64,000 bases of DNA from Gemmatimonadaceae bacterium. GTDB lineage: Bacteria; Gemmatimonadota; Gemmatimonadetes; Gemmatimonadales; Gemmatimonadaceae. The stretch lies in the NCBI GenBank assembly GCA_050998915.1, contig JBPCPS010000141.1:5878-69877 (forward strand), in the 5' to 3' direction. Of the stretch, positions 28,319 to 58,050 are shown piece after piece. The translations under genes were made by a program, and so were the position numbers. Each line of letters opens with the position of its first letter. Within the stretch, counting starts at the first letter, position 1. Under the pieces are notes generated by a model that made no database searches, was not told the DNA's origin, and was given only the letters and a program-made list of their open reading frames with translations.

Positions 28319-29256
28319 GGCAGTGTCCCCGACTGTGGGGCGGCGGACGTCGCCAGCTCGGCCTCATTCGGCAGTCCTGTGTCTTCGAGCGTATCCGCGG
28401 CGGCCGGCATCTTCGTTTCGACGTAGCGCGGATCCAATGCGTCACGCAGGGCATCACCCAGCAGATTGAAGCCGAGCACCGACGCGCCGATCGCCACGCC
28501 GGGAAATACCGACGTCCATGGCGCGTTGCGCAGCTGGTCAAGATCGCGCCCGTCGGCGATCATCGACCCCCAGCTCGGCGTCGGCGGCTGTACGCCAAGC
28601 CCGAGGAAAGACAGCGCGGCCTCCGCCATGATCGCGCCCGCGACGCCGAGCGTTGCGGCGATGACGACCGGCGCGATGACGTTCGGCAGAACGTGCTTCA
28701 CGATGATGGTCCTGTCCTTCGCCCCGAGCGCGCGAATGGCCTGGACGTACTCGAGTTGCCTGACCACCAGCACCTGGCCGCGTACGAGCCGCGCCATGCC
28801 GGCCCAGCCCACGATTCCAATCGTGGCGAACACTACCACCATCGAAGGCTGCAGGGCCGCGACCATCGCGATCAGCAACAACAGTGTCGGAAAGGCGAGA
28901 GTGACATCAGCGAGGCGCATCACCAATTCGTCGATCCAGCCACCGTAGTAACCCGCGACCAAGCCAAGCAACACGCCGAGGAAGAGTGCTATCCCCTGTG
29001 AGATGACACCGACCGCGATCGACACGCGGGCGCCGTAGACCAGCCGTGCCCAAACGTCGCGCCCCTGAATGTCGGTTCCCATCCAGTGATCGCCCGACGG
29101 CCCTTCGAGCATGCCCGCCAGATCGATTCCGACAGGATCGTGAATCGCGAGCAGCGGCGCGAAGACCGCCGCGCCGATGATCATCGCGACGATCACCAGC
29201 CCGATCTGCGCGCGCCGGTCGCGCATCAATCGGCGGCGCTGCTTGGGATCTAGCAT
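28315..29256 (-). CDS. ABC transporter permease, OppC/DppC type (no partner genes nearby)
   Basis: BPD_transp_1 EAA-type region LEYVQAIRALGAKDRTIIVKHVLPNV. Six hydrophobic segments. ATGA overlap with the downstream gene. Confidence 0.85.
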   Translation of the reverse strand: MLDPKQRRRLMRDRRAQIGLVIVAMIIGAAVFAPLLAIHDPVGIDLAGMLEGPSGDHWMGTDIQGRDVWARLVYGARVSIAVGVISQGIALFLGVLLGLVAGYYGGWIDELVMRLADVTLAFPTLLLLIAMVAALQPSMVVVFATIGIVGWAGMARLVRGQVLVVRQLEYVQAIRALGAKDRTIIVKHVLPNVIAPVVIAATLGVAGAIMAEAALSFLGLGVQPPTPSWGSMIADGRDLDQLRNAPWTSVFPGVAIGASVLGFNLLGDALRDALDPRYVETKMPAAADTLEDTGLPNEAELATSAAPQSGTLP

Positions 29257-51140: not shown

Positions 51141-51977
51141 ATGTCTCCCTACATCGTCCACCAGCCGTTCCTCTACGACCTCGGACCGTTCAAAGGCATC
51201 GGGGGTTTCGGCCTAGCGATGCTGATGTGCTTCGTCACCGGGCAGATCCTGCTCACGCGCGAGCTCATGAGACGCGGGCACGACCCGGCGCCGGTGGGCG
51301 ACCTGGTGTTCGCGGCCGCCATCGGCGGACTGCTGGGCGCGAAGATCTACTACGCGATTCTCACGCAGGACATGGGCGCGCTGTTCAGCCGCGCGGGCTT
51401 CGTGTTCTGGGGCGGGCTGATCGGCGGGATCATCGCAACGAGCCTCGTGGTGCGCTTCAAGAAGCTCCGCTGGAGCACGATCAGCGACGCGAGCGCGATG
51501 AGCCTCGCCGCGGCGTACGCCGTGGGACGCACCGGATGCTGGGCGGTGGGCGACGACTACGGCCGGCCGTGGGACTCACCATTCGCGGTGCAGTTCCCCG
51601 AGGGCGCGCCGCCATCGACGGCGGCGAACATGTCGCAGATGTTCGGAGTCAGCTTTCCAGCGGGAACGGATCCGTCGGCCGTGATTGCGGTGCACCCGAC
51701 GCAGATCTATGAGGTCGTCCTCGGCTTCGTGATGTTTCTGATCATCTGGCACTTCCGCGATCACAAGCACGCGGCGGGCTGGTTGTTTGGGATGTACGCC
51801 GTGCTCGCCGGGCTCGAGCGATTCATCATCGAGTTCGTCCGGGCGAAGGACGATCGGTTCTTCGGCGGGCTTACGCTGGCCCAGGTGATCGCGATTGGCT
51901 TTGTGGCCGCCGGCGTGGCGTGGATGTACGCTCGCCGGGAAATCGGACCGGGGAGACAGGGGATCTACGCTTCTTAA
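51141..51977 (+). CDS. lgt: Prolipoprotein diacylglyceryl transferase
   Basis: Multi-TM protein with GRTGCW..GDDYG and HPTQIYE motifs. Confidence 0.9.
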   Translation: MSPYIVHQPFLYDLGPFKGIGGFGLAMLMCFVTGQILLTRELMRRGHDPAPVGDLVFAAAIGGLLGAKIYYAILTQDMGALFSRAGFVFWGGLIGGIIATSLVVRFKKLRWSTISDASAMSLAAAYAVGRTGCWAVGDDYGRPWDSPFAVQFPEGAPPSTAANMSQMFGVSFPAGTDPSAVIAVHPTQIYEVVLGFVMFLIIWHFRDHKHAAGWLFGMYAVLAGLERFIIEFVRAKDDRFFGGLTLAQVIAIGFVAAGVAWMYARREIGPGRQGIYAS

Positions 51978-52001: not shown

Positions 52002-52096
52002 GGAATCCAAGTTCGGAGTGTGGCAGTTTGGAGTGAGGAGTACGGGTTCCCTTCCAGACTGCAACCTCCAGCCTGCCACACTCCCTACTTGGATCC
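52002..52096. repeat. Palindromic intergenic element, family C, copy 2
   Basis: GGAATCCAAGT (52002-12) pairs with ACTTGGATCC (52087-96). GGAGTGTGGCAG (52015-26) pairs with CTGCCACACTCC (52073-84). It overlaps the stop codon of the ligase-like gene. Confidence 0.8.
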
Positions 52097-53377
52097 CGCC
52101 GAAGCCGTAGCTCGAACTCTCCTCGAGCGACGCGGCCGGCCGATAGGGTTGAGCTTCTCCCACTCCGCCAAGTGATCAAGCAAGTAGTCGAGTGAGAATA
52201 CGTGCCGTGTCCCGTCCTCGCGCCGCCTGAAAACCACTCTCGACCAGCCCTTCATTCCCGTCGGCTTGTACCACATGCCGTTCATGTGCAGCTCTTCCCC
52301 CCTGATGGCCCGGATCAGCACCCGCTCGTACCGCGAGCGCGGCAATACCCGCTCGGAAAAGAGATTGTCCCACCGGCATAGCCGGCCGATGTCCTGGTAC
52401 CCGTCCGGCCGCTCGTCGAGGTCGAGCAGAGACGGCACGCGCCCCCGCAGAACCGAGCCGATCAAACGCAAAGTGAACGGATCCGATACGCGCCGGATCG
52501 ACGGCCAGAAGTGACGCGCGGTCAGCCCCGCGATCTCCCGCAGCGCGAGCGTGCGCCCGTCGCGCGTCGGCCACATCGCGGCATCCACGTCGCACTGAAA
52601 CGGATTCTCGCTGAAGCACGTGAATCGGGCGAGCCAGCCCTTGCGCGACGTGTGCCGCATCGGCCGGAAGCTCGCCAGCACGGGCAGCCGCTTCTTCTCT
52701 AGCATCTCGAGCTCGAAGCTCTCCCACCGCATGACGGAGCGCACGATCCCCACGATCAGCGTAGCCGTGGCGATCATCAGCGAAGCGCTCGGCGTGAAGT
52801 CGGCAGTCACTTCGATTCGATTGCCGCGCGGACGCACCCCGATCCCGGTGGACTCCCGGTTGGCCGCCAGCAGCATCACCGGCATCGGCAGGATGTATGA
52901 CAGCAGCAGCGCCAGCTTCTCCACGCTCTTGCCGTTGCCCCGCTCGTGTGGCGGCAGGTCGAACGAGATGTTGTAGTGCGCGCTGAAGCCGGTGAGCTGA
53001 ACCTTGCTCCCGTTGGATTTCTCCCAGGCATCCAGCTCGTCGCGCAGAAAAAGGATGCTTTCCCAGAGCGAGCGGCCAGCCCGCGCACCGCACCCCTTCG
53101 CGATCTCGATGACCGGCGTCGCGACTTCGATGACGCCCGTGTCGAAGTAGACCGCACCGCCCGTGGGGAGGTGATACGAGCGACCGACGCGATGCATCAA
53201 GGGGCCGCGGATGATGTTGCGCGGGCTCCCGAACACGTCCTCGGGCCGCACCTGCTCGCCGTCCACGATCACCGCGAATTCGGCTTCGAGTCCGATCGCC
53301 GCGAGCGCGATCCGGTCCGATCCCGCGCGCTTGTCGCCGCCGTCCGACTTCTTCCGATTCCGTGTGCTCTGCGCCAT
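52085..53377 (-). CDS. Hypothetical protein with carboxylate-amine ligase (PafA/Dop and GCS2, glutamine-synthetase-like) motifs
   Basis: IGLEAEFAVI (compare GxExE of GCS2/PafA). GGAVYFDTGVIEVATP (compare PafA NGARxYVDxxHPEYSTPE). GFSAHYNISF (compare GCHENY). GVRPRGNRIEVTADF (compare GCS2 D-x-RP...VE-x-R). No signal peptide. About 200 aa of unassigned Arg/Trp-rich C-terminus. Confidence 0.5.
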   Translation of the reverse strand: MAQSTRNRKKSDGGDKRAGSDRIALAAIGLEAEFAVIVDGEQVRPEDVFGSPRNIIRGPLMHRVGRSYHLPTGGAVYFDTGVIEVATPVIEIAKGCGARAGRSLWESILFLRDELDAWEKSNGSKVQLTGFSAHYNISFDLPPHERGNGKSVEKLALLLSYILPMPVMLLAANRESTGIGVRPRGNRIEVTADFTPSASLMIATATLIVGIVRSVMRWESFELEMLEKKRLPVLASFRPMRHTSRKGWLARFTCFSENPFQCDVDAAMWPTRDGRTLALREIAGLTARHFWPSIRRVSDPFTLRLIGSVLRGRVPSLLDLDERPDGYQDIGRLCRWDNLFSERVLPRSRYERVLIRAIRGEELHMNGMWYKPTGMKGWSRVVFRRREDGTRHVFSLDYLLDHLAEWEKLNPIGRPRRSRRVRATASAGSK

Positions 53378-53443
53378 CTACTGCGACCTCTGGTTCCTTT
53401 CCCCCGAACGGATTCGACCGCGTCCGCCCCGGGGTGAGCGACG

Positions 53444-54061
53444 CTATCGCCGCGCCTTGTCCATCCCGTCGGGCGCGTCGCGCGGTATCGAAACCACGTA
53501 CCCGAAGTCCAGATGCAAATGATCGTCCGCGAATCCGGCGGCCTCCCCCGTCGGGCGCGTCCAGACCGCCGGAAGCGTCTCCCGTGCGACCATGCTGTAC
53601 CGCTCTATCGATTTCTCGTCGTCCAGCCGGGTGGACCCGATCCGATAGATGTTCGCGGCCGTCCCCCAGCAGTGCGGCGAAGCATCTCTACTCAAACGGT
53701 GTACCGGAGACCGGTACCCGCCGTTCGCGGCAATGTGCACGAACGTACCAACCGCCTCACGGAACCTCTCCAGGCACAGGGCGAGCAGAGTTATCGCGCA
53801 GGGGACGTACCGCGGAAATCGCCTGAACACATCGACTTCCCTTACGTCGGTCTGGATGAATTCCCAGAGGTAGAAGTGGGGAGACAGCTCCAGCTTCCGC
53901 GCGACGTCCCAGGAGGGAATCTCATAAAAATAACGGGGCAGCTCCCGTTCGCGGCCGGCCGGATCACGCATCGCCTCGCCAGGCCGCAGCGCGTCCCGGA
54001 ATTTCCGGTCCAATGCCAGGCCGTCCACGATCTGGAGCGGAAAAGAGCGATCGTCAGCCAT
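53444..54061 (-). CDS. Peptidase M15 / Hedgehog-DD-peptidase-fold protein (YcbK/DUF882-like) with Asp-to-Asn at the second zinc ligand
   Basis: YLWEFIQTD, NGGYRSP, SPHCWGTAANI (consensus S-x-H-x-x-G-x-A-x-D), DHLHLDFG. No signal peptide. 8-nt overlap with the upstream gene. Confidence 0.6.
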   Translation of the reverse strand: MADDRSFPLQIVDGLALDRKFRDALRPGEAMRDPAGRERELPRYFYEIPSWDVARKLELSPHFYLWEFIQTDVREVDVFRRFPRYVPCAITLLALCLERFREAVGTFVHIAANGGYRSPVHRLSRDASPHCWGTAANIYRIGSTRLDDEKSIERYSMVARETLPAVWTRPTGEAAGFADDHLHLDFGYVVSIPRDAPDGMDKARR

Positions 54062-54935
54062 CCTTTTTTGGGCCCCCGTCGGTCAAAAATTCGTGTACCG
54101 CTTCGGACACCTTGGCGATGGCCTGCTGCCGGCCGGAAGTGCCGGTATCCCATTCCGTAAGGGCCACGAGGACGTACGGATTCCGCCCGGGCAGATAAAC
54201 GATCCCGGCGTCGTGCGCGATGGTCGAGATCTCCCCCGTCTTGTGCGCGACGCGCGTTCGCTTGGGGAGCGGCGCGGGAATACCGCTGTTGAATTCCTGC
54301 GCGTGCAGAATGTCCAGCATCTCCCTGGACAACGTGCGGGAAAACGACCGCTCCTCGGCGATCACCTTGAGCAGCCGCGCGAGGCCGGCAGCAGTGACGC
54401 GGTTGGAGACGCCCGCGTCGAACGCGCGGTTGTCTTCCACCCCGCGCTGCAGCTCGATCCCCTCCTCGACGCCCAGCTCGGCGAACGTCCGCTGCATGCT
54501 CGGGAGGCCCACGTAATCCAGCAACAGGTTGGTAGCGAGGTTGCTGCTGGTCGCGATCATGTGGAACGCGAGCTCGCGAACCTGCATCGTCTTTCCGATC
54601 GCCGCGTGCACCACGGCGTTGGCATCCCGCTCCGGATCGACGCGAAAGATCGAGCCGTCGTCCGCACTCTGGAAGCGGTTTCGCACGTGCAGACGCGACT
54701 GCGGGAGGAGCTCGCCGCCGTGCACCGCGCCGAAGACGCCCACGAGAATCGGGATCTTGATCGTGCTCGCGGCATGGAACCACCGGTCCGATTCGTGATC
54801 GAAGTCGATCGACGTCTCGATGTCGCGAACCGCTACAGCCAGCGCTTCCGCGCCCGAATCGCGCTTGATTTCGCCGATGCGGTCCCGGAGCTTCGCCGAG
54901 TCGTGTGCCTGCCTTTTTTTCGAGTCGTTGCCCAT
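54054..54935 (-). CDS. Class A beta-lactamase-fold serine hydrolase, no signal peptide
   Basis: ASTIK (SxxK), TSSNLA (SxN), RGVEDN (omega-loop-like), HKTGE (KTG). ATG 54935 preferred over the longer ORF. Confidence 0.7.
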   Translation of the reverse strand: MGNDSKKRQAHDSAKLRDRIGEIKRDSGAEALAVAVRDIETSIDFDHESDRWFHAASTIKIPILVGVFGAVHGGELLPQSRLHVRNRFQSADDGSIFRVDPERDANAVVHAAIGKTMQVRELAFHMIATSSNLATNLLLDYVGLPSMQRTFAELGVEEGIELQRGVEDNRAFDAGVSNRVTAAGLARLLKVIAEERSFSRTLSREMLDILHAQEFNSGIPAPLPKRTRVAHKTGEISTIAHDAGIVYLPGRNPYVLVALTEWDTGTSGRQQAIAKVSEAVHEFLTDGGPKKDG

Positions 54936-55010
54936 GCGGTTGCGCTGAAACGGTAGGATATACTTAACGACCGACGTGCAGCCCCCCAACCAAGCCGTGG
55001 AGTCCGCCAA

Positions 55011-56435
55011 CTGCACTACCACCTGATCGGAATCGCCGGGACGGCGATGGCCTCACTCGCTGGACTGCTGAAGGCGGCCGGCCACACGGTCACGGGCTCC
55101 GACGAGAACGTCTACCCGCCCATGTCGCACGAGCTCGAGGCCCTCGGGATTTCGTACCGATCGGGCTTCGCTCCTGCGAATCTCGAGCCGCGGCCCGACA
55201 TCGTGGTCGTGGGCAACGCGATCTCCCGGGGGAATGTCGAGCTCGAAGCCGTCCTCGACCGCAAGCTCCGATACACGTCGGCCGCCGCGGTCATCAAGGA
55301 AGAGTTCATCCGCGGGCGGCATTCGCTGGCGGTCGCGGGCACGCACGGCAAGACGAGCACGAGCTCGCTGCTGGCGTGGGTGCTGGAAGTCGCCGGCCTG
55401 AATCCCGCCTTTCTGATCGGAGGAGTCGCCGAGAACTTCGGCCGGTCGTTCCGGCTCACTGACTCGAAGTACTTCGTGATCGAAGCGGACGAATACGACA
55501 CGGCGTACTTCGACAAGGGCCCCAAGATGTGGCACTACCTGCCCGATACGGCGATCGTGGCCAACATCGAGTTCGATCACGCCGACATCTATCGCGACGC
55601 CATCGCCTACAACTTCGCGTTCGCGCGGTTCATCAACCTGATCCCCGGCAATGGCACGCTGGTGGCCGGCTGGGATTCACCCATCGTCCGCGAGCTTTCT
55701 GGCAGCTCGTTCGCGCCGGTCGAGTCGTTTGCTTATTCGGCGGATCAGCCCGCGGCAGGGGACGGCGCGCACCCGCGATGGCGCGCGGAGAACGTGCGCT
55801 TCGGTCCGGCGGGAACGACGTTCGACGTTCTGCGCGACCGCGCCGGATGGGGCGCGGTGGAATCCCCGCTCGCCGGCGCGTTCAGCGTGCGCAACATTCT
55901 CGCCGTCATCGCAGCCGCTGAAACGGTGGGTGCCGACCGCGAGCGCGTGCGTGAAGGGCTGCGCACGTACAAGAGCGTCAAGCGGCGCATGGAGGTGCGG
56001 GGCGAAGCGCGCGGCGTGACGGTGATCGACGACTTCGCGCATCATCCCACCGCAATCCGCGAGACGATCGCCGCGGCGCGGCAGAAGTACGCCGGCCGCC
56101 GGCTGGTCGCCGTGTACGAGCCGCGCAGCTATACGGCCCAGCTGCGCGAGTTCGAGGGAGCCTACGAGGCCGCGTTCGCCGAAGCTAACGAGATCGTGCT
56201 CGCGGGGCTGTTCCATCCGGAGCGCTACATCGGCAACGCCCTCGACCCGAAGGGGCTCGTGGAGCGATGGCAGAATGCGGGGAAAGCCGCCGCTTACATC
56301 CCCGCCGTTCCCGACATCGTCCGGGTGTTGGAGGGATCGCTGCGCCCGGGAGATGTGGTGCTGATCATGTCGAACGGCGGATTCGGGGGACTGCACGAGA
56401 AGCTACTCTCCGCTCTTGCCCAACCTCCTCGGTAG
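55011..56435 (+). CDS. mpl: UDP-N-acetylmuramate:L-alanyl-gamma-D-glutamyl-meso-diaminopimelate ligase (murein peptide ligase)
   Basis: LHYHLIGIAGTAMASLAGLL aligns with the E. coli Mpl N-terminus MRIHILGICGTFMGG (recalled). GTHGKTSTSS, IEADEYD, DDFAHHPTA. CTG 55011 has GGAG 8 nt upstream; the first ATG is at 55047. Confidence 0.88.
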   Translation: MHYHLIGIAGTAMASLAGLLKAAGHTVTGSDENVYPPMSHELEALGISYRSGFAPANLEPRPDIVVVGNAISRGNVELEAVLDRKLRYTSAAAVIKEEFIRGRHSLAVAGTHGKTSTSSLLAWVLEVAGLNPAFLIGGVAENFGRSFRLTDSKYFVIEADEYDTAYFDKGPKMWHYLPDTAIVANIEFDHADIYRDAIAYNFAFARFINLIPGNGTLVAGWDSPIVRELSGSSFAPVESFAYSADQPAAGDGAHPRWRAENVRFGPAGTTFDVLRDRAGWGAVESPLAGAFSVRNILAVIAAAETVGADRERVREGLRTYKSVKRRMEVRGEARGVTVIDDFAHHPTAIRETIAAARQKYAGRRLVAVYEPRSYTAQLREFEGAYEAAFAEANEIVLAGLFHPERYIGNALDPKGLVERWQNAGKAAAYIPAVPDIVRVLEGSLRPGDVVLIMSNGGFGGLHEKLLSALAQPPR

Positions 56436-56586: not shown

Positions 56587-57384
56587 TCAGGTCGCTGTCG
56601 GCGCCGAAACTGTCCTCTCGAACACGTACGTTTTCACGATCGCAAGAGCGAACAGCGCCAGCAGAACAACCTGGGCGACGGTAGTCTCGACGGTCGGGTA
56701 GACTCCGAGGAACCCGATCTTCGGAATCGAGAGCGCCGTCTCCGGAATCACGTGTCCTTCCTGCAGCTCATGAATTCCCTTGCCCGTGAACACGAACGCC
56801 ATGTAATACAGCAGGATGCTCGTCACCGCGAAAAACGGACGCAGCGGAATCCTGACGCCGAACCTGTAGAAAAGCGCGAAGATTATCGCCAGCACGACGA
56901 CGCCGGCGACGAAACCGGCCAGCAGCTGCCCCCCCGCGTCGGGCGCGTTCAGGTACATCGCCTGGTAGAACAACACCGCCTCGGCGCCTTCGCGGAATAC
57001 CGCCAGGAACGCGACGAGAGCGAGCGCTCTGCCGCCGCCCTGCTGCATCGCCCGGGAGACCTGCGAGTGAATGAACTGCTGCCATCTCGCGGACTCGATC
57101 TTCGAGATGAGCCAGTAGCTCACGAAGAACAACACCACCGCGGCGAGTAGCATCGTGACCCCGTCGGTGATCTCGGCCGCAGCGGGTGACGCTGCGAGCG
57201 TCGCGCTGAACGCGAGCCCGAGAACGAGACTCGCTGCCAACGCCAGGCCGACGCCTAGCCAGATCGGCCGCAGACGGTCGCGGTTGCCTGTCTTGATGAG
57301 AAGAGTTACAACCGCGCCCACTATGAGGATGGCTTCGAAGCCTTCGCGGACGATTACGAGGAACGATTGCAGTGCGGGAGTCAT
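56587..57384 (-). CDS. FTR1/EfeU-family high-affinity iron permease
   Basis: Two REGxE motifs (REGFEA, REGAEA) in a multi-TM protein. Confidence 0.85.
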   Translation of the reverse strand: MTPALQSFLVIVREGFEAILIVGAVVTLLIKTGNRDRLRPIWLGVGLALAASLVLGLAFSATLAASPAAAEITDGVTMLLAAVVLFFVSYWLISKIESARWQQFIHSQVSRAMQQGGGRALALVAFLAVFREGAEAVLFYQAMYLNAPDAGGQLLAGFVAGVVVLAIIFALFYRFGVRIPLRPFFAVTSILLYYMAFVFTGKGIHELQEGHVIPETALSIPKIGFLGVYPTVETTVAQVVLLALFALAIVKTYVFERTVSAPTAT

Positions 57385-57456
57385 GGCGGACAGTTGAGAA
57401 TGGTTCTCAAAGAGTATGCCGAGTGAATGTATCGGCTTACCCCGACCCGTCAACCG

Positions 57457-58050
57457 TCAAGCTTGCTCGAGATCGTAGCGGTATTCGCCCCGCAGCTCGC
57501 TGGCGCACAGCGCTGTTCGTTCGCCCGTACGCGCCTCGAACCGGCGCGCAAAATCCGGCAGTCGCTCCGCCGTAAACGCTCCCCTGTCCATCCCCAACTT
57601 CCCGATCGCGCTCTCGATCGCGTCCGCGTCTCCCTCGACCTCCACAAGATCGTCCATTCGCGGATAGCGCTCGAACCGCACGGTCGCGCCTCCGACGCGG
57701 TACGTCTGCGCTTCCCGCTCGATCTCGCGCGTCACCACGTAGCCGAGGGCTTCCAGTATCGCCGTGAGGCCGGCGAGATCCGAGACGGCGGTGGTGTGCT
57801 CCTCCCGCACCTTGAGTCCTGACTCTATCCGCGTTGCGCCTTTCCAATCTAGATGCGCGGTCTCGCCATCGGCGCTCACATACACACGGACCCGGAGCAC
57901 CTGGTCGACCGCGGCCAGTGAGCGTTGCGGTGTGTCGTACCGGAGGTCGCGCATCCGTCCCGAGAATATTTCTGTCGCGCCCGCCGAGACGAGTCTCTGC
58001 TTCCGCACGGGCATGTCGTCGACGACAGCCTTTACCTCTACCTCAAGCAT
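57457..58050 (-). CDS. CYTH domain protein (class IV adenylyl cyclase / triphosphatase family)
   Basis: N-terminal MLEVEVKA (ExExK) motif and size typical of CyaB/CYTH. Confidence 0.8.
   Translation of the reverse strand: MLEVEVKAVVDDMPVRKQRLVSAGATEIFSGRMRDLRYDTPQRSLAAVDQVLRVRVYVSADGETAHLDWKGATRIESGLKVREEHTTAVSDLAGLTAILEALGYVVTREIEREAQTYRVGGATVRFERYPRMDDLVEVEGDADAIESAIGKLGMDRGAFTAERLPDFARRFEARTGERTALCASELRGEYRYDLEQA

Follow-up and report, generated by a model that had tools for sequence, protein, structure and literature searches.

Which pathway is served by three adjacent genes whose products combine a class A beta-lactamase-like fold, an M15-like peptidase signature and a glutamine-synthetase-like carboxylate-amine ligase fold, and which lie next to mpl, the gene for a ligase of murein peptide recycling? 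The question arises from a 64,000-nucleotide (nt) stretch of contig JBPCPS010000141.1 (positions 5,878 to 69,877 of the forward strand) in the Gemmatimonadaceae assembly GCA_050998915.1, which we call the window and in which positions are counted from the first letter. The three genes are named C, B and A here, in the order of transcription (Table 1). An initial annotation, made from the window alone, had proposed that they encode a cytoplasmic system that ligates and trims a stem-peptide-like or other small peptide or protein tag. The answer that we favor, with a probability of about 0.4, is narrower: the trio would be a cytoplasmic module for the processing of murein stem peptides that works alongside Mpl, a reading in which the substrate and the reactions are what we infer.

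Gene order and conservation of the trio

The open reading frames A, B and C are all encoded on the minus strand, head to tail, between lgt and mpl, which both lie on the plus strand. The layout described in the initial annotation, three co-directional genes with an 8-nt overlap followed by a 66-nt gap, was confirmed in its coordinates: the stop of C and the start of B overlap in the shared octamer ATGGCTGA, and the spacer between B and A measures 66 nt. The G+C content of the region is 62-70%, and the trio shows no compositional break. No signal peptide was evident in A, B or C by a heuristic that combines N-terminal charge with Kyte-Doolittle(15) hydropathy, again in agreement with the initial annotation. 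The N-termini are charged and of low hydropathy (maximum of 0.44 for B and 0.86 for C), and the only hydrophobic stretch of A is the beta-strand that carries its GhExE motif (see below). The orthologs of C have short charged N-termini from which a hydrophobic core is absent, and C is therefore considered cytoplasmic. The best reading of the locus is a single operon, C-B-A, of three cytoplasmic enzymes.

One genome per GTDB species was scanned, which gave 363 loci with a relative of A. The best 80 of these all belong to Gemmatimonadota (Gemmatimonadaceae, Gemmatimonadales, Longimicrobium). In 78 loci the upstream sequence was long enough to show the gene order, and 75 of them have C-B-A on one strand. 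The nearest relatives of A and B in the databases come from metagenome-assembled genomes (MAGs) of Gemmatimonadaceae. When Gemmatimonadaceae are compared with Longimicrobium, A and Mpl each show about 70% identity, and B and C 53-60%. This match in conservation between A and the core enzyme Mpl implies that A has an important role in housekeeping. An intact trio also occurs in two metagenomic lineages (loci L091 and L096) in which A is 46-47%, B 46-55% and C 44-56% identical to the window proteins. The co-localization that the initial annotation expected in related genomes was thus found, even where all three proteins have only 44-56% identity. The partners B and C are missing only beside the most distant A homologs (35-48% identity).

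The clade of A at about 47% identity is a large one, with two members from MAGs that carry the label Verrucomicrobiota/Chthoniobacterales. Because this second clade includes such MAGs, the A family probably extends beyond Gemmatimonadota. No match to A was found among 72,556 records of plasmids and 50,697 of phages, and PADLOC models matched none of the three proteins.

Several loci with more distant relatives were noted in passing. The A-like proteins of the second clade (P0391-P0509) are 43-54% identical to A, and some of them are encoded on contigs of 2.0 and 4.6 Mb. In L091 (489-7197), the trio follows 55 nt after genes for OEP, membrane-fusion and MacB/FtsX-type efflux proteins on the same strand. 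An A homolog with 42% identity (L089:1-7287) occurs without partners in an island that also carries two DndB-family genes, QueC and PTPS (QueD-like), and the make-up of this island is that of a DNA-modification or defense locus. Another distant homolog follows an unrelated secreted protein. The most distant full-length homolog (35%; L087:8001-11410) overlaps tail to tail with a 302-residue protein with LAS motifs (SSHKRGIDID ... HFDHIHV), which is MepA-like and has a faint Peptidase_M74 match; a gene for an NlpC/CHAP-like protein and nonribosomal peptide synthetase (NRPS) genes lie nearby, and B and C are absent.

Folds and active-site residues of the three proteins

Protein A had no match in Pfam, NCBIfam, PADLOC or the PDB sequences, whether used alone or as a profile. 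The initial annotation had compared it by eye with PafA/Dop and GCS2/YbdK. A and 33 of its orthologs, the latter searched against Pfam at E-values up to 10, matched neither Pup_ligase (PF03136) nor GCS2 (PF04107), and distant A homologs gave no Pfam domain at E-values up to 0.01. There are more than 4,000 homologs of A, and all the named ones are called 'hypothetical protein'. An exhaustive HMMER scan of 1.84 billion cluster representatives with A returned only 440 clusters, none of which links A to a known family.

The predicted structure was more informative, as the structural match to glutamine-synthetase-like ligases that the initial annotation had anticipated was obtained. An AlphaFold2 model of A, built from a 33-sequence alignment, reached a pLDDT of 82.5 and a pTM of 0.82, with disorder only in the basic tails (residues 1-24 and 415-430). 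When this model was compared with the PDB by Foldseek, the top 11 matches were all PafA, Dop or YbdK (E-values 9.5e-9 to 4e-4, probability 1.0), among them PafA 4bjr (9.5e-9), Dop 7oyh/5lrt (about 1e-7) and YbdK 1r8g (5e-6). Glutamine synthetase and gamma-GCS ranked next, with weaker scores, and a comparison with predicted viral structures (BFVD) gave nothing. The initial annotation had located the ligase motifs in the N-terminal 200 residues and had left the C-terminal half unassigned. The motifs do align with those of known enzymes, as described below, but one confident model covers the whole of A and not its first 200 residues alone.

All motifs quoted in the initial annotation were found in the translations of A, B and C; those of A are IGLEAEF, GGAVYFDTGVIEVATP, HYNISF and VRPRGNRIEV. 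A profile alignment of A with Corynebacterium glutamicum PafA by hhalign, for which the PafA sequence was recovered from a PDB alignment, had modest statistics (probability 14-39%) yet brought the expected motifs together. IGLEAEF of A (G29-L-E31-A-E33) falls on GIETEY of PafA, the GhExE motif, which binds ATP throughout the superfamily (PMC7947786); in A, this motif does not vary within Gemmatimonadota, and its conservation in the wider family is 90% or more. The stretch GGAVYFDTGVIEVAT of A is paired with NGSRLYLDVGSHPEYAT of PafA, and Y77, D79 and E84 are paired with LYLDVGSHPEY. D79, which lies in YFDTGVIEVATP, aligns with the catalytic-loop Asp of PafA (D57 in Mycobacterium tuberculosis, D64 in C. 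glutamicum), and thus corresponds to the loop Asp of PafA and Dop, a residue that has been proposed as catalytic base or nucleophile (PMC3511204). The matching PafA residue (D64) is Asn in the Pup-complex entry 4bjr and Asp in 4b0t. Finally, a low-confidence part of the alignment pairs FSAHYNISF of A, with H134 and N136, with YGCHENYLV (H-E-N) of PafA.

Y77, F78, D79, E84, T87, P88, H134 and N136 are invariant family-wide, including in homologs with 34-50% identity, and so are R182, R184, R187, E189, T191 and D193. The strand VRPRGNRIEVTADF (R182/R184/R187/E189/D193) resembles DIRPSPHFGTVEVRVMD of YbdK, by eye only, and the Arg that usually follows the Glu (E-x-R) is the invariant T191 in A. 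The alignment of A with Escherichia coli YbdK by hhalign was not significant (0.1% probability), so that the fold alone matches.

Judged from alignments and the model, A appears to be a catalytically intact member of a new family in the glutamine-synthetase-like superfamily, closest to PafA/Dop and, by its profile searches, outside the Pup_ligase and GCS2 families. PafA and Dop are its best structural matches (E-values of 1e-8 to 1e-6, probability 1.0, TM score about 0.4-0.5), and A has in common with them the GhExE motif and the catalytic loop Y-x-D...E-x-x-T-P, and probably also the H-x-N strand. That a ligase-fold enzyme is coupled with hydrolytic partners recalls the PafA/Dop pair. It differs from the actinobacterial enzymes by an identity of only about 12-13% and the lack of a Pup_ligase Pfam match, by its length (430 versus about 480-500 residues) and its own Arg/Trp-rich C-terminal half, by the absence of pup, proteasome or Mpa genes nearby, and by its occurrence in Gemmatimonadota and the second clade rather than in Actinobacteria. 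A is also strongly basic, with an isoelectric point of 10.15, a net charge of +9 in the C-terminal half and Lys/Arg-rich tails. With YbdK/GCS2, glutamine synthetase and gamma-GCS it has the common fold, it has a GhExE motif, and, by eye, its R-P...E-x-x-x-D strand is like that of YbdK. What separates A from this group is the lack of a GCS2 match, the non-significant hhalign result, T191 in place of Arg and the Asp loop of PafA/Dop type. By analogy with these enzymes, A could be a ligase like PafA and GCS, or a hydrolase like Dop, with isopeptidase or deamidase activity.

Protein B of the window gave nothing significant against Pfam, NCBIfam or PDB sequences, as a single sequence or as a profile, and no Peptidase_M15 model was matched at its gathering score. 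Sub-threshold matches to PF08291 (Peptidase_M15_3) were seen in 11 of 33 orthologs, with a best E-value of 0.019. Because no Pup_ligase, GCS2 or M15 model of Pfam was matched, A and B are considered new or remote families. For B, a bridge was provided by a microvirus 'peptidase', found by tblastn of B against phage genomes. This protein is a bona fide member of PF08291 (E-value 8e-13, 48.9 bits), and the B family profile aligns with it over 123 columns (hhalign 93.5%, E-value 2.3e-7), such that H130 and H183 of B fall on the two zinc-binding His and N137 on the zinc-binding Asp. R117, H130, D180 and H183 are invariant in B. The conserved Arg of GGYRSP is kept, and so is an acidic residue at the third position ahead of the last His. 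The motifs that the initial annotation quoted for B, SPHCWGTAAN and HLHLD, are both present in its translation.

The zinc triad His-Asp-His of B is incomplete, as the Asp position is occupied by Asn in the window protein. Asn occupies position 137 in 107 of 116 database matches (~92%) and in 75 of 81 loci, and Asp does so in the others. The M15 assignment that had been made by eye, including the exchange of the zinc ligand, is thus borne out by the profile alignment and by these counts. The lineages with Asp include the most divergent ones that carry the trio, and Asp is therefore probably the ancestral state. The AlphaFold model of B was weak (pLDDT 67.5, and below 50 in the putative active-site loop 114-131); a Foldseek search with it yielded nothing significant, with Sonic hedgehog only at rank 19 (E-value 1.5). 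From the alignments, we regard B as a remote relative of the LAS / M15_3 proteins whose metal site is unusual. In common with the LAS enzymes (PF08291, VanX/DdpX, LdcB, MepA, MepK), it keeps the His...His ligands, the Arg and the acidic residue. It departs from them in scoring below the Pfam threshold, in having Asn for the zinc Asp, in an additional N-terminal segment of about 55 residues, and in its cytoplasmic location; M15_3 proteins are mostly phage lysins or secreted enzymes.

Protein C contains a full-length Beta-lactamase2 domain (PF13354, E-value 4.7e-47, 160.5 bits against a cut-off of 22), and scores 91.7 bits with the NCBIfam model for class A beta-lactamases (bla_class_A, NF033103), far under the cut-off of 200 bits. 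Its nearest solved relative is PBP-A Tll2115 of Thermosynechococcus (2j7v, E-value 2e-19 among PDB sequences), and a profile of 77 C orthologs aligns with TEM-1 (hhalign 96.9% probability). The class A motifs recognized in the initial annotation (STIK, SSN, KTG and RGVEDN) are present and conserved: S57-T-I-K60, S130-S-N132, the omega-loop-like R164-G-V-E-D168 and K232-T-G234 are kept in at least 97% of the 77 orthologs, together with many further family-specific residues. Residues are numbered from the Met at 54935, as the orthologs place the start of C at ATG 54935, while the longest reading frame reaches GTG 55022. C shares the Beta-lactamase2 domain and the SxxK, SxN and KTG motifs with PBP-A and class A beta-lactamases, but lacks a signal peptide, stays well under the class A cut-off, and has its own invariant RGVED loop and family-specific invariant residues. 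A role of C in beta-lactam resistance was considered and rejected, as C is cytoplasmic and far under the class A family cut-off.

The folds are known, but the family of A and the divergent family of B are apparently new, as is the constant association of both with a cytoplasmic protein of beta-lactamase fold. The claim that no pathway with this gene combination had been described agrees with our literature search on peptidoglycan recycling in Gemmatimonadetes, Mpl neighborhoods, Pup-ligase-like families and cytoplasmic M15 LD-carboxypeptidases, which found no description of the trio, although older papers on amidoligases, Dop or PafA/Dop structures may mention the family. Environmental members of the A and B families number in the thousands, yet neither family has a Pfam or NCBIfam model or a solved structure, and their annotation goes no further than 'hypothetical protein'. 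A extends the PafA/Dop/GCS2 branch of the glutamine synthetase superfamily into Gemmatimonadota and the second clade.

Linkage to mpl and candidate functions

The mpl gene of the window is a genuine equivalog (TIGR01081, 406.6 bits versus a cut-off of 388.7). Linkage of the trio to mpl was counted in 28 loci with at least 7 kb of flanking sequence on both sides, and an mpl homolog was found within about 7 kb in 24 of them, in three arrangements. In the arrangement of the window, mpl is divergent from C, and lgt and tsaD follow. In another, mpl is convergent, 0.07-1.1 kb downstream of A in most loci and 6.2 kb in one; here, a DUF1697 gene usually separates A from mpl, and SBP_bac_5 and ATP-binding cassette (ABC) permease genes usually lie directly upstream of C. 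In the third, found in Longimicrobium and related loci, mpl lies 1.5-2.8 kb downstream. The proximity of mpl has survived these rearrangements, which argues for a functional tie. The linkage to mpl put forward in the initial annotation therefore holds within Gemmatimonadota, but not in the distant clade that carries the trio (see below).

Starting from the observed folds, conserved catalytic residues, cytoplasmic location, operon, gene order and mpl linkage, we propose that the trio would act in sequence on a peptide that contains D-alanine and a glutamyl side-chain linkage. The likeliest substrate would be the free stem peptide L-Ala-gamma-D-Glu-mDAP-D-Ala(-D-Ala) (mDAP, meso-diaminopimelate) that reaches the cytoplasm in wall turnover, because its bonds D-Ala-D-Ala, mDAP-D-Ala and gamma-D-Glu-mDAP map onto the folds of C, B and A, respectively. 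C, as a PBP-A-like serine DD-peptidase, would take the terminal D-Ala off pentapeptides. B, as an enzyme of LAS / M15_3 type, would remove D-Ala4, the LD-carboxypeptidase step that is the task of LdcA in E. coli. A would bind ATP-Mg and activate a carboxylate of the peptide as acyl phosphate, and would then either form a new amide bond (as PafA and GCS do) or, in the manner of Dop, hydrolyze an amidated carboxylate or the gamma-D-Glu-mDAP isopeptide bond. The combined action of the three enzymes would determine if the peptide is passed to Mpl or dismantled. Cells that use Mpl must remove D-Ala4, as otherwise toxic UDP-MurNAc-tetrapeptide is formed, and LdcA has been replaced by unrelated enzymes in several lineages (PMC13046382). 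We also count in favor of a link to murein that SBP_bac_5 and ABC permease genes adjoin C in the commonest arrangement, and that a distant A homolog lies beside genes for a MepA-like LAS peptidase and an NlpC/CHAP-like protein.

The closest parallel in function would be the LdcA/MpaA/Mpl set of E. coli, with which the trio would have in common the cytoplasmic trimming of D-Ala, the opening or re-use of the gamma-D-Glu-mDAP bond and the tie to Mpl (the pathway is described in PMC13046382, the equivalence is presumed). The proteins themselves differ, as A, B and C are not homologous to LdcA (S66) or MpaA (M14). We know of no enzyme with a glutamine synthetase fold in the murein recycling pathway of E. 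coli. A likeness to ddpX-ddpABCDF of E. coli is seen in one arrangement of the trio, where a peptide ABC importer stands beside the LAS peptidase. If the murein recycling reading is correct, the trio would carry out the LD-carboxypeptidase step and the disassembly of the peptide in a major soil phylum, on condition that LdcA and MpaA are lacking there; it would also add a new enzyme chemistry to peptidoglycan recycling, and give a function to a cytoplasmic protein of beta-lactamase fold.

A more specific form of this proposal is that A founds a new PafA/Dop-like branch with acyl-phosphate chemistry on the stem peptide, either as isopeptidase/deamidase or as a ligase to another acceptor ('murein-peptide tagging'), with C and B preparing the substrate. 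We hold this to be rather unlikely. Were A to act on the stem peptide, it would be the first enzyme of glutamine synthetase fold in peptidoglycan metabolism and part of a non-homologous, phylum-wide replacement of LdcA/MpaA.

Several observations weigh against murein stem-peptide processing. The second zinc ligand of B is Asn in about 92% of orthologs, and B might therefore bind rather than cleave its ligand. The basic character of A (isoelectric point 10.15, Lys/Arg-rich disordered tails) suggests a polyanionic or macromolecular partner, to which it is better suited than to a small peptide. To our knowledge, enzymes of glutamine synthetase fold normally act on carboxylates of L-glutamate type, and none is known to act on murein peptides; the murein substrate of the trio is something that we infer. 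In the clade at about 47% identity, no mpl was found within 6 kb of the trio (L091, L096), so that the tie is lineage-restricted, and three loci of Longimicrobium type have no mpl within 7-8 kb.

The retention of the trio without mpl in the distant clade would suit a small cytoplasmic metabolite unrelated to the wall (a gamma-glutamyl or D-amino-acid dipeptide, a thiol or an osmolyte), for which A would be a ligase of gamma-glutamyl type and which C and B would degrade or proofread. YbdK/GCS2 and gamma-GCS are among the structural matches of A, and its VRPRGNRIEVTADF strand is like the R-P...E-x-R-x-x-D strand of YbdK GCS2, by eye. Even so, we consider this explanation unlikely: it is hard to reconcile with the presence of mpl nearby in three rearranged contexts, the hhalign comparison with YbdK was not significant, the Asp loop of A is of PafA/Dop type and not GCS2-like, and small-molecule ligases are not typically basic proteins whose tails are basic and disordered. 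The same basic surface and tails, suggestive of a macromolecular partner, would be at home in Pup-like tagging, where A would join the C-terminal or side-chain carboxylate of a small protein or peptide to target lysines, or remove such a tag, and C and B would trim the C-terminus of the tag in order to mature or recycle it. Such a system, which would be pupylation-like and outside Actinobacteria, could draw on PafA/Dop as the best structural matches, on the Y-x-D...E loop kept in A, and on the very high conservation of A, as fits a conserved protein substrate; the open beta-sheet cradle of PafA accommodates protein substrates (PMC3511204). It is nevertheless distinctly improbable. Ten annotated neighborhoods contained no small Pup-like reading frame, proteasome or Mpa/ARC ATPase gene, the sole recurrent gene downstream of A encodes a DUF1697 protein (about 175 residues) and is absent from the window, Pup_ligase was not matched even at E-values up to 10, and the folds of B and C are specialized for D-Ala-containing peptides and not for protein C-termini.

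It is very improbable that the trio serves in detoxification or immunity, directed against beta-lactam-like, D-Ala-D-Ala-mimicking or peptide antibiotics from the cell itself or its neighbors. VanX-type LAS dipeptidases are cytoplasmic resistance enzymes, C has the full class-A-like catalytic set with a conserved Glu in RGVED, and one distant A locus is beside NRPS genes, but C reaches only 91.7 of the required 200 bits and resides in the cytoplasm, where the targets of beta-lactams are absent. Moreover, the trio forms a core locus, highly conserved and passed on vertically, that was not found on plasmids or phages and matched no defense models, and no biosynthetic cluster accompanies it in the annotated Gemmatimonadota neighborhoods. 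Each of the three folds is widespread on its own, and the genes might in principle be functionally unrelated, their common theme being coincidental. The probability of this is close to nil, given the identical order with tight or overlapping spacing in 75 of 78 loci and the co-divergence of the three proteins in the clade at about 47% identity; chance adjacency of A, B and C was rejected on this synteny evidence.

Intergenic regions and neighboring genes

Table 1. Position and predicted nature of the trio and of the features that flank it in the window.
Feature	Position	Strand	Length	Description
gene C	54054-54935	minus	293 aa	cytoplasmic serine hydrolase, class-A-beta-lactamase / PBP-A-like fold
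gene B	53444-54061	minus	205 aa	divergent LAS / Peptidase_M15_3-like metallopeptidase with N-terminal extension of ~55 aa
gene A	52085-53377	minus	430 aa	undescribed family, glutamine-synthetase-like carboxylate-amine ligase fold, strongly basic
mpl	55011-56435	plus		UDP-MurNAc:L-Ala-gamma-D-Glu-mDAP ligase, divergent neighbor, probable CTG start
lgt	51141-51977	plus		convergent with A
C-mpl intergenic region	54936-55010		75 nt	divergent, presumed site of both promoters
imperfect hairpin	52002-52097			between convergent A and lgt, overlaps last codons of A

The initial annotation gave a divergent spacing of about 75 nt between the trio and mpl. The divergent orientation and the identity of the equivalog stand, but a spacing of 75 nt requires that CTG 55011 be the start of mpl. 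The sequence argues for this non-canonical start as the probable one. The conserved N-terminal motif (L)HYHLIGIAGTA of Mpl is encoded in frame upstream of the first canonical start, ATG 55047, and there is no ATG, GTG or TTG between the in-frame stop at 54954-56 and HYHLIGIAGTA. CTG 55011 is preceded by GGAG at a spacing of 9 nt. A canonical start is likewise missing in 10 of 51 related loci (CTG in nine, ACG in one), and in other clades mpl has an ATG about 12 codons further upstream. In the C-mpl intergenic region, the stretch around GGTAGGATATACTTAACGAC is kept in close relatives, where it is visible as conserved pseudo-translations.

When the region was scanned for promoters, terminators and Rfam families, no promoter-like site (sigma-70 consensus) and no RNA family emerged, and the hairpin between A and lgt was the only element found. 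This element of about 96 nt is an inverted repeat with 32-nt arms that are 84% complementary. Its predicted RNA fold has an energy of -63.7 kcal/mol (z-score -5.7 versus shuffles), its arm motif has no second match within the window, and it is probably a bidirectional terminator. Weak, meaningless Rfam matches to a miRNA precursor were seen on both of its strands.

The DUF1697 gene (PF08002, about 175 residues) that stands between A and convergent mpl, on the strand of the trio, was found at L013:9415-9933 and about 37 other loci (for example, L026:9402-9920). It characterizes the commonest arrangement in Gemmatimonadaceae and is absent from the window. The genes for SBP_bac_5 and one ABC permease, which immediately precede C on its own strand, occur at L002:3943-6424 and at 18 other long-flank loci, and no second permease or ATPase gene was found beside the pair at these loci. 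The arrangement of the window is without this pair, with only a weak permease paralog at about 28594-28944. In Agrobacterium, one report describes a transporter of SBP_bac_5 type that imports muropeptides (PMC9790009).

The remaining neighborhood shows conserved housekeeping synteny, with genes for a HAD hydrolase, EamA and DUF6941 proteins on one side and for Lgt, TsaD, redoxin, Rpe and a PASTA protein on the other. One difference from the syntenic loci L085 and L086 is that, in the window, mpl and a gene for a CYTH-domain protein (57457-58050) are separated by an inserted efeU/FTR1 iron permease gene (56587-57453).

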